Positions 43,912 to 44,745 of a stretch of DNA of 64,000 nucleotides are shown here, one piece after another. A program made the translations under genes and the position numbers. The stretch is from an uncultured Nitrososphaerales archaeon (GTDB taxonomy: Archaea > Thermoproteota > Nitrososphaeria > Nitrososphaerales > Gagatemarchaeaceae): assembly GCA_963706445.1 (NCBI GenBank), contig OY970160.1, positions 1,753,758-1,817,757 on the forward strand, given 5' to 3'. Under the pieces are notes generated by a model. The model worked only from the letters and a program-made list of their open reading frames with translations. It ran no database searches and was not told the DNA's origin. How positions within the stretch are numbered: the first letter of the stretch is position 1; every line of letters starts with the position of its first letter.

Positions 43912-44196
43912 TTACACTGGAACCGAGAGCTCTATCTCAAGCACTGGGAGGTTGAGCTGCCTCCCGTCCCGCGAAGTGACGTTCTCACCGTCGATGGTTA
44001 TGTTGGAGATCTGGACGTTGCTCATGAAGCGCTTCCTGAGTACCTGAGCGACCTCCACTGACATGTTGATTGCCTCTCCCCTTGCGCGGAGGACTACCTG
44101 TTTGGCGCCCCCGTTGAACATGGTGATGCACGCGGTCACATAATTCAGGAGGGGTTTGCTCTGGCCGACGATGACGGTCTTTCTCTCTTCAGACAT
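43912..44196 (-). CDS. albA: DNA/RNA-binding protein Alba
   Basis: KP+.NYV.A, V.L+ARG.AI...V.VA, IEL. Confidence 0.9.
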   Translation of the reverse strand: MSEERKTVIVGQSKPLLNYVTACITMFNGGAKQVVLRARGEAINMSVEVAQVLRKRFMSNVQISNITIDGENVTSRDGRQLNLPVLEIELSVPV

Positions 44197-44235
44197 GAGA
44201 CGTTTGGCCTCCTACTCCGCCTATAAATCCTCGCT

Positions 44236-44301
44236 TTACAGCCCCATCTGTTTCTCGTCGCCGCAGCAGCCTGAGCCGCAACAGCAGCAACAACACGCCA
44301 T
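44236..44301 (-). CDS. Cys-rich 21-aa micropeptide (metallothionein-like; not in ORF track)
   Basis: MACCCCCCGSGCCGDEKQMGL; GGGGTGA Shine-Dalgarno 5 nt before ATG. Confidence 0.65.
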   Translation of the reverse strand: MACCCCCCGSGCCGDEKQMGL

Positions 44302-44339
44302 TCAGTTCACCCCAGGCAGAATAATACCCCAGAGGGTAA

Positions 44340-44576
44340 TTATTGACTGACCCGTCTGTATTTTCCTTTGAACTTCTCTATGGCTCCGTGGTTCGCAAGG
44401 CGCTTCAGGATCCTGGAGATTACTTCCTGGTGGTATCCGAGCCTCTCCTTCAGGACTGAGAATACGACCGGCCGATCGCTCGAGCAGATGGCCATGCAGA
44501 CTTGCGCTTCCCTTTCGGTGAGCTGCAGGCAATCGGGACTATCGCATACGGCCACGGGGCAGCAGGAGAGCGACAT
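44340..44576 (-). CDS. Small winged-helix regulator with Cys-rich N-terminus
   Basis: MSLSCCPVAVCDSPDC, then LTEREAQ..F..LK..LG.HQE..SRILKRL...G.IEK..G.Y. Confidence 0.8.
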   Translation of the reverse strand: MSLSCCPVAVCDSPDCLQLTEREAQVCMAICSSDRPVVFSVLKERLGYHQEVISRILKRLANHGAIEKFKGKYRRVSQ

Positions 44577-44666
44577 GGCTTCCACAATTATTTCGCGGAG
44601 CTATTTATTGACCAACGTGAGAGCCCGCCGATAGGATATAAACAGAGGTTGGAGAGCCGCGAAATA

Positions 44667-44745
44667 GGGGTCGTCGGCTAGTCTGGTCTAGGCTTCAAGC
44701 CTCGGGCGCTTGAGATCGCTGGTTCAAATCCGGCCGACCCCATCC
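44667..44745 (+). tRNA. tRNA-Pro(CGG), no intron, encoded CCA
   Basis: GGGGTCG/CGACCCC acceptor; CAAGC-CTCGGGC-GCTTG arm; GGTTCAAATCC. Confidence 0.93.

Follow-up and report, generated by a model that had tools for sequence, protein, structure and literature searches.

A conserved archaeal two-gene cassette of a mini winged-helix regulator and a poly-cysteine micro-ORF, with a predicted role in the arsenite response

The arrangement of a small thiol-rich chelator under a winged-helix metal sensor encoded alongside it is familiar from SmtB/SmtA and from MymT with its copper-responsive control. Metallothioneins of the SmtA and MymT type are longer than 50 residues. Phytochelatins, the short poly-thiol peptides (gamma-Glu-Cys)n-Gly of plants and fungi, are enzyme-made, are induced by arsenic or cadmium and sequester As(III). 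ArsR/SmtB proteins dimerise partly via a C-terminal helix, while ArsD, of about 120 residues, has a thioredoxin-like fold. The As(III)-responsive regulators named in PMC11868830 are all of the ArsR/SmtB type, and their As(III) sites comprise three Cys, often with a vicinal pair (C32/34/37 in R773 ArsR, C95/96/102 in AfArsR, C15/16 plus C55' in CgArsR). The As(III) site of ArsD is given as C12-C13-C18 where PMC10820871 cites its ref. 48. Mycobacterial polycysteine small open reading frames (sORFs), the only described poly-Cys micro-ORFs found in the literature, are leaderless and lie 5' of cysteine-metabolism operons, where an RNA duplex hides the next ribosome site (Canestrari et al., bioRxiv 10.1101/834739). 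The present report concerns a locus in a 64,000-nucleotide stretch of DNA (the window) from an uncultured Nitrososphaerales archaeon (assembly GCA_963706445.1, contig OY970160.1, positions 1,753,758 to 1,817,757; genome G000), in which the gene for a 78-residue mini winged-helix regulator is followed by a Cys-rich micro-ORF (Table 1). On comparative sequence grounds, the micro-ORF is a real, conserved and previously unannotated gene. It is somewhat probable that the two form a cassette acting in the response to arsenite, a soft metalloid, with a metallothionein-like peptide for which metal binding is predicted.

The window peptide, MACCCCCCGSGCCGDEKQMGL, has eight Cys among 21 residues (38%), and is two to three times shorter than SmtA or MymT. 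A first-pass annotation, made from the letters of the window, had singled out its mixed TGT/TGC codons, a strong GGGGTGA Shine-Dalgarno (SD) sequence and a position 38 bp behind a winged-helix gene with six Cys in its N-terminal half. All three are borne out: the codons read TGT TGT TGC TGC TGT TGC ... TGC TGC, the GGGGTGA pairs with the organism's own 16S 3' end (GGATCACCTCCT), and 38 nt separate the micro-ORF start from the stop of a regulator with Cys at 5, 6, 11, 16, 27 and 31. No other ORF of the 1.82-Mb genome reaches eight Cys per ten residues. A homolog search with the regulator, after which the loci were fetched, yielded 71 unique loci, and their flanks were searched for poly-Cys ORFs, the check that the annotation had proposed; at least five Cys in 12 residues and a start about 40 nt after the regulator stop were required. 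An orthologous micro-ORF is present in 42 of the 71, starting with ATG (13), GTG (18) or TTG (11), and the ribosome site before it is conserved in relatives as G(A/G)GGTGA. Together with the unique Cys density in the genome, this recurrence lies well outside what chance would give.

These 42 peptides have 14-33 residues (median 25) and 5-12 Cys (median 8), or 32% Cys overall. Most other positions are taken by S, G, E, P, K, A, D and T. None of L, I, F, W, Y, M and H exceeds 1.2% of residues, and F, W, Y and H stay at or below 0.7% each, so that aromatics and His are nearly absent. In 32 of the peptides a Cys run leads through a turn of one to four Gly/Pro/Ser residues to a CC pair and a hydrophilic, often acidic tail; examples with an ATG start are MACCGCGCCEGCCNEEKKEE (L004), MACCCCCSPGCCGDEKKGGI (L006), MPCCNCCCCCCCGCCSEVRSIEQKSAEHAEG (L081) and MQIEYGPGCCEECECCC (L115, from a metagenome-assembled genome (MAG) labelled Thermoplasmataceae). 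Judged by sequence, this composition is metallothionein-like, taking the class operationally: small, about 30% Cys, C-C, C-x-C and C-x-x-C arrangements, few aromatics or His. Eight of the peptides searched against Pfam matched no family, and no metallothionein family at E values up to 10.

The Cys codons total 198 TGC and 116 TGT, and 48% of aligned Cys-Cys pairs differ in codon, so selection at the level of the protein, rather than of the DNA, holds Cys in place. A DNA-level element or a chance ORF would agree with a reading frame that is too short for gene callers, belongs to no family and starts with GTG or TTG in 29 of 42 cases. Four peat metatranscriptome contig sets from one study also stop at the downstream alba gene: they match alba at 100% identity, end at 44176 and do not reach the cassette. 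The comparative data contradict such a non-coding origin and make it extremely improbable, as Cys is retained through near-saturated synonymous change, insertions and deletions comprise whole codons, and SD, start and stop are conserved across lineages labelled as three phyla. Its 21 codons and the GTG and TTG starts of its homologues hide the micro-ORF from standard gene callers. It is a clean case of a functional micro-ORF found through synteny. Across loci, the micro-ORF is found in each of the three possible frames with respect to the regulator gene, and this rules out programmed read-through or frameshifting from the regulator into the poly-Cys frame. A precursor of ribosomally synthesised and post-translationally modified peptides was rejected, the modifying enzymes occurring in no neighbourhood examined, and so was a known RNA family at the locus, where only tRNA-Pro matched. 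In five loci (L046-L048, L052 and L005) an ATA, ACG or similar codon stands at the start position and the only canonical start is a GTG inside the GAGGTGA ribosome site; initiation there may be near-cognate.

The regulator scores below cut-off against TrmB (23 bits), MarR_2/MarR, HTH_27 and other generic winged-helix families in Pfam, and its match to NCBIfam Lrs14 reaches 21.6 bits against a cut-off of 90, placing it outside Lrs14/AbfR. It does not match Pfam HTH_5 or HTH_20, the mark of ArsR/SmtB proteins, nor NCBIfam HTH_metalloreg, to which a neighbouring true ArsR scores 84.7 bits. A sequence search of the PDB returned nothing below E 0.07, and the homologs bear generic database names (MarR, HxlR, predicted regulator). 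In the AlphaFold2 (AF2) model (mean predicted local distance difference test score 77) a low-confidence arm of residues 1-20 precedes helices 21-31, 39-46 and 50-63 and a β-wing at 66-75. Foldseek with this model found generic winged helices only, the best archaeal match being AbfR2 (E 0.04, 29-30% identity). Four of the Cys (C5, C6, C11, C16) lie in the disordered N-terminal arm and two (C27, C31) in helix 1; in the alignments C27 is invariant and C5, C6, C16 and C31 are conserved in at least 90%. The arm follows the pattern (C)C-x4-5-C-x3-4-C, with three to four Cys in 49 of 54 members. As in ArsR types 1-3, ArArsR and ArsD, this would provide a three-Cys As(III) site with vicinal Cys, in a putative repressor logic that is likewise autoregulatory with the operator over the promoter. 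The spacing C5-C6-x4-C11 equals that of C12-C13-C18 in ArsD as cited in PMC10820871 (ref. 48). That spacing is all the two have in common: neither peptide nor regulator gave a family match to ArsD. Proteins of about 200 residues in other Thermoproteota (L164-L191) have the recognition helix LHQEKLSRIL in common with the regulator; they were rejected as family members, being Cys-free and without box or poly-Cys ORF.

Upstream of the regulator lies a 12-nt box, GTCAATAAATAG or GTCAATAAATA(G/C), about 30 nt before the start codon in 62 of 66 unique loci examined, MAGs labelled Thermoplasmata and Thermoprotei among them. A second copy, GTCAATAA(C/T)TA(C/G), covers the last codons and stop of the regulator at exactly the same position in 35 unique loci, where the regulator ends ..GQ* in the codons GGT CAA TAA; in the window its last codon and stop (..Q*) read CAA TAA. 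The distance from this second copy to the GGTGA ribosome site is constant at about 24 nt, and the sequence between is not conserved. The box contains a TATA-like ATAAATAG that lies 24 nt before the regulator ATG, the same distance as from ATTTATAG to the ATG of alba. Owing to this equal spacing, the box is read as a transcription factor B recognition element (BRE) and TATA element combined with an operator; we infer that the mRNAs of the regulator and of the arsenite methyltransferase gene arsM would be leaderless, and that the micro-ORF would have a leader of about 10 nt. The near-palindrome between regulator and micro-ORF, which the first-pass annotation had offered as a binding site, does exist as an inverted repeat (82% complementary). 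As an operator or hairpin it fails, for its one conserved arm is part of the box GTCAATAAYTAC over the regulator stop and the other arm is specific to this genome. A hairpin masking the SD (TACCCTC pairing with GAGGGGTGA) was discarded as well: the second arm is not conserved, and RNAalifold gave no pairs on 20 loci.

The box also connects the cassette to arsenic genes elsewhere. The 16-mer GGTCAATAAATAGCTC occurs exactly twice in G000, before the regulator and, 715 kb away at G000:C1:1083107, before arsM in an arsM / acr3-arsC-arsR cluster. With at most one mismatch, an 11-mer of the box has seven sites in this genome, three of which are the promoters of regulator, micro-ORF and arsM. Five other genomes hold 2-4 copies of the 11-mer, where a reversed control gives 0-1, and the additional ones lie before arsM or an aquaglyceroporin gene; 14 of 20 further extra exact copies that were fetched lie roughly 30-40 nt before arsM, and the box also precedes ACR3 genes. 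A genome-wide promoter type was rejected on these counts (three sites in G000; reversed control 0-1 per genome). Family-wide, 51 regulator-positive genomes hold 124 copies, at least one each, and 46 regulator-negative genomes hold 28, with none in 27, against 28 copies of a control motif in all 97; much of this co-occurrence is trivial, because two box copies are physical parts of the cassette. In five genomes of the genus that lack the box, the regulator and arsM are lacking too.

Arsenic genes also stand next to the regulator. Within 1.5 kb, and mostly directly behind it, they are found in 20 of the 29 loci that lack the micro-ORF; the 71 loci divide into 39 with the poly-Cys ORF only, 20 with arsenic genes only, three with both and nine with neither, counts that are not phylogenetically independent and so describe the data without testing it. 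The neighbours include an aquaglyceroporin (Pfam MIP) with an ArsC of the low-molecular-weight-phosphatase type behind it or fused to it (MIP and LMWPc form one ORF in L088), ArsM (NF008823, 275 bits against a cut-off of 263) and ACR3 (TIGR00832, 410 bits against 283), the last followed in L109, of the same genus, by ArsR/SmtB, ArsC and ArsM. Among the three loci with both is L074, where regulator, poly-Cys ORF, MIP and ArsC follow one another. In the regulator tree, poly-Cys ORF and arsenic genes replace each other as neighbours at least five to six times; poly-Cys ORFs also occur on the divergent outlying branches. From the tally and these replacements it follows that the micro-ORF occupies a regulatory slot held elsewhere by arsenic genes. 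All regulated neighbours that could be identified in Nitrososphaerales are arsenic genes (MIP-ArsC, ArsM or ACR3); copA, czc, mer and zinc genes were not encountered.

These observations suggest the following scheme. The mini winged-helix protein would bind the box over BRE/TATA and repress its own gene, the micro-ORF and arsM. Its flexible N-terminal thiol arm (C5/C6-x4-C11-x4-C16) would capture As(III), upon which the regulator would leave the DNA. The induced 21-residue peptide, with eight thiols, a Gly/Ser turn and an acidic tail, may then bind As(III) or the methylarsenite, MAs(III), made by ArsM, as a gene-encoded buffer or carrier of metallothionein or phytochelatin type, and may also damp the induction. 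Where neither ArsM nor ACR3 is encoded, the cassette alone would serve as sensor and chelator. The metal-sensing and sequestration module proposed in the first pass is supported in part, as a conserved two-gene cassette in a context tied to a toxic soft metalloid and without the palindromic operator; in pointing to arsenic, the shared box and the exchanged neighbours lead beyond that proposal.

Several observations weigh against this scheme. The box lacks symmetry, an unusual trait in the target of a dimeric winged-helix protein. The expectation that box and regulator always co-occur held only in part. At least four genomes, G014 (100% complete), G025, G033 and G247, retain the box before arsM with no regulator homolog even at E 0.1, and in them the cassette is cleanly missing between the usual flanking genes. 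There, the box may have been retained as the arsM promoter after loss of the regulator, or may be read by another factor. The peat RNA contigs cover alba only; assembled contigs are no proof that a transcript is absent, and where there is no arsenic a regulon under repression would not be expressed. Outside Nitrososphaerales (Thermoplasmata, Thermoprotei) the loci have no arsenic neighbours, and one has a ChrB_C gene and a major facilitator superfamily transporter. Finally, the cassette is encoded by four high-quality genomes in which no match to ArsM exceeds the cut-off and ACR3 is missing: G011 (100% complete, on a single contig), G006, G004 and G156. The cassette can consequently stand alone, and its effector could be another thiophilic metal.

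The last two observations are also what favours a module of the same sensor and thiol peptide that responds to a different soft metal (Cu(I), Cd, Hg or Zn) or to general thiol or redox stress, with the arsenic genes as one output. Poly-Cys peptides are, by established metallothionein chemistry, promiscuous in what they bind. However, the uniformly arsenic-related neighbours in Nitrososphaerales and a box that ties the cassette to arsM even within the poly-Cys clade point away from such an effector, and this alternative appears unlikely, if worth keeping in mind.

The arsenite scheme has a further variant in which the peptide is not a bulk chelator. Here the micropeptide would be the detached Cys tail of the regulator and, once loaded, would dock on the N-terminal thiol arm in a shared As-S3 site, as a co-effector setting the threshold or shut-off of the response. 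Cys in the C-terminal tail are found in 16 of 23 regulators without the micro-ORF against 7 of 31 with it, an association confounded by phylogeny, and the regulator of L014 ends in ..SLCLCCCC. Gain and loss affect the cassette as a whole, and an As site built from two chains is described for CgArsR (PMC11868830). In-frame regulator-polyCys fusions occur in two cluster representatives, the metagenomic proteins P0121 and P0123; in P0121, which has lost 1 nt, the box GTCAATAACTAC reads VNNY in translation. The two may be real fusions or assembly errors, and as assembly frameshifts they would lend a split sensor no support. Taken together, this arrangement is distinctly unlikely.

A Cys-responsive leader or attenuator, in which ribosomes pausing on the Cys codons control the downstream gene, was the other function suggested in the first pass. 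Arsenite stress raises thiol demand, and in L074 the micro-ORF stop overlaps the MIP start by 4 nt, so that the reading may hold where the aquaglyceroporin gene follows directly. The mycobacterial polycysteine sORFs, which work in this way, use just such runs of 4-10 Cys codons (bioRxiv 10.1101/834739). Against this, the downstream gene varies (alba with its own BRE/TATA after the micro-ORF stop, an opposite-strand cyclophilin-type isomerase gene in L009, L011 and L012, or MIP), and the constant partner is the upstream regulator, with no cysteine-metabolism genes nearby. No consensus RNA structure was found in the region folded, from box to start. The conserved spacing of Cys run, Gly/Pro turn and CC in 32 of the 42 peptides, and the conserved hydrophilic acidic tail, would be needless in a pausing device, and the micro-ORF start is SD-led, not leaderless. 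A leader function in general is therefore very unlikely. As a leader peptide for alba it was rejected, since alba has a conserved BRE/TATA of its own at leaderless spacing and the isomerase gene on the other strand intervenes in L009, L011 and L012.

Set beside the known systems, the cassette would functionally resemble SmtB/SmtA and ArsR/ArsD, and by the tests run it belongs to neither family. Unlike SmtB/SmtA and MymT, it has an archaeal host, no Pfam metallothionein match, true Cys runs, a regulator that is neither ArsR/SmtB nor CsoR, and a regulon that points to arsenic and not to Zn, Cd or Cu. Unlike ArsR, the regulator is a minimal winged helix without a helix after the wing in its AF2 model, and its fold neighbours are generic, AbfR2/Lrs14 included. 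Nor is the peptide ArsD, a protein that was also, according to PMC11868830 and to refs 47 and 48 as cited in PMC10820871, initially noticed as a second regulatory product of small size and rich in Cys. The mycobacterial sORFs are similar in being unannotated, in their consecutive Cys codons and in their conservation across species, but the archaeal ORF lies behind a regulator, has an SD, no fixed downstream gene, no conserved structure in the tested region and an arsenic context. In contrast to phytochelatins, the archaeal peptide is gene-encoded and ribosomal, and no phytochelatin synthase is involved. What appears to be new, as far as sequence comparison goes, are the regulator family, the cis-element and the micropeptide family; the plan of metal sensor plus thiol chelator was already known. 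A limited literature search, which does not prove novelty, found no paper on an archaeal metallothionein or gene-encoded thiol chelator, and none on this regulator, box, peptide or pairing.

A bolder form of the arsenite scheme is plausible, though short of probable. In it, a ribosomally made archaeal 'phytochelatin' of 14-33 residues would be the primary output of a new arsenite-sensing mini winged-helix family with an invariant box. The peptide may be the detachable sensory tail of the regulator, in an As(III)-bridged complex, and the cassette, found in lineages labelled as different phyla, would confer metalloid tolerance without efflux or methylation genes. The cassette as such would contribute a sensor family not recognised before, a defined 12-nt cis-element and a metal(loid)-binding gene product among the smallest known to us. 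Through it, arsenic handling would become testable in the abundant, uncultured Group I.1c Thaumarchaeota of acid soil and peat, and a 78-residue sensor, a 12-bp box and a 21-residue binder would be very small parts for arsenic biosensing or sequestration.

The regulator family is small: a search of 1.84 billion proteins gives 30 cluster representatives at E<=1e-10. The related MAGs bear the labels Thaumarchaeota or Nitrososphaerales and were recovered from acid soil, peat and groundwater; among them is SubAcS15-57, a product of the study in which the Group I.1c family Gagatemarchaeaceae was defined (GTDB f_UBA183; PMC10640624). Strong regulator matches are present in 50 of 96 sampled Gagatemarchaeaceae genomes and 10 of 13 in one sister family; a further family of the order, sampled with 112 genomes, yielded none. 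Divergent homologues with a Cys-rich micro-ORF occur in one Thermoprotei-, two Thermoplasmataceae- and one Calditenuaceae-labelled MAG.

Table 1. Features of the cassette and its surroundings in the window (positions count from the first nucleotide of the window).
Feature	Position	Strand	Remarks
tRNA-Pro gene	44667-44742	plus	
78-aa mini winged-helix regulator	44340..44576 (ATG 44576, TAA 44342-44340)	minus	below-cut-off Pfam/NCBIfam matches, AF2 model
Box 1, GGTCAATAAATAGCTC	44598..44613	minus	core GTCAATAAATAG at 44612-44601; putative promoter/operator of regulator gene
Box 2, GTCAATAATTACCC	44334..44347	minus	overlaps last codons and stop of regulator; putative promoter/operator of micro-ORF
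Near-palindrome	44320..44344	no strand	arms 44320-44330 / 44334-44344, 11 nt each, 82% complementary
Shine-Dalgarno GGGGTGA	44307..44313	minus	5 nt before micro-ORF ATG
Poly-Cys micro-ORF MACCCCCCGSGCCGDEKQMGL	44236..44301 (ATG 44301-44299, TAA 44238-44236)	minus	21 codons + stop
alba TATA box ATTTATAG	44221..44228	minus	24 nt before alba ATG (44196)
alba chromatin protein gene	43912..44196	minus	Pfam Alba, 62 bits, 3.6e-17; neighbour, outside module

The same flanking genes enclose either the whole cassette or none of it. In L158 (G029) it is missing between tRNA-Pro and alba, and about 150 nt are left with a tiny ATG..TGC TGC TGA ORF (MSAMCC*), which may be a deletion scar. In L035 and L092 (G222, REEA66) it is split by an insertion, an opposite-strand gene for a 484-residue TnpB/IS605-OrfB-like protein that lies between the regulator and a displaced box copy, from about +1 to +1350 after the regulator stop. 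The alba gene, placed downstream by the first-pass annotation and recognised as such here, begins 39 nt after the micro-ORF stop, and the sequence GCGA(G/C)C-TTTATA(G/A)G before it is kept at equal distance in relatives. Because it has its own BRE/TATA 24 nt before the ATG, the spacing expected for a leaderless mRNA, alba forms an independent unit, probably leaderless, that the micro-ORF does not target. The genome's own ars cluster (G000:C1:1083145-1085837) has arsM on the plus strand and acr3, arsC and a canonical ArsR/SmtB gene on the minus strand, so that this canonical regulator coexists with the cassette; GTCAAT lies between the TATA element and the start codon in its arsR promoter. In L014 and L016 an opposite-strand ORF of 123 residues (MATTKSTIPLL...) directly follows the regulator; it may resemble the YbjQ/DUF74 'putative heavy-metal-binding' family.

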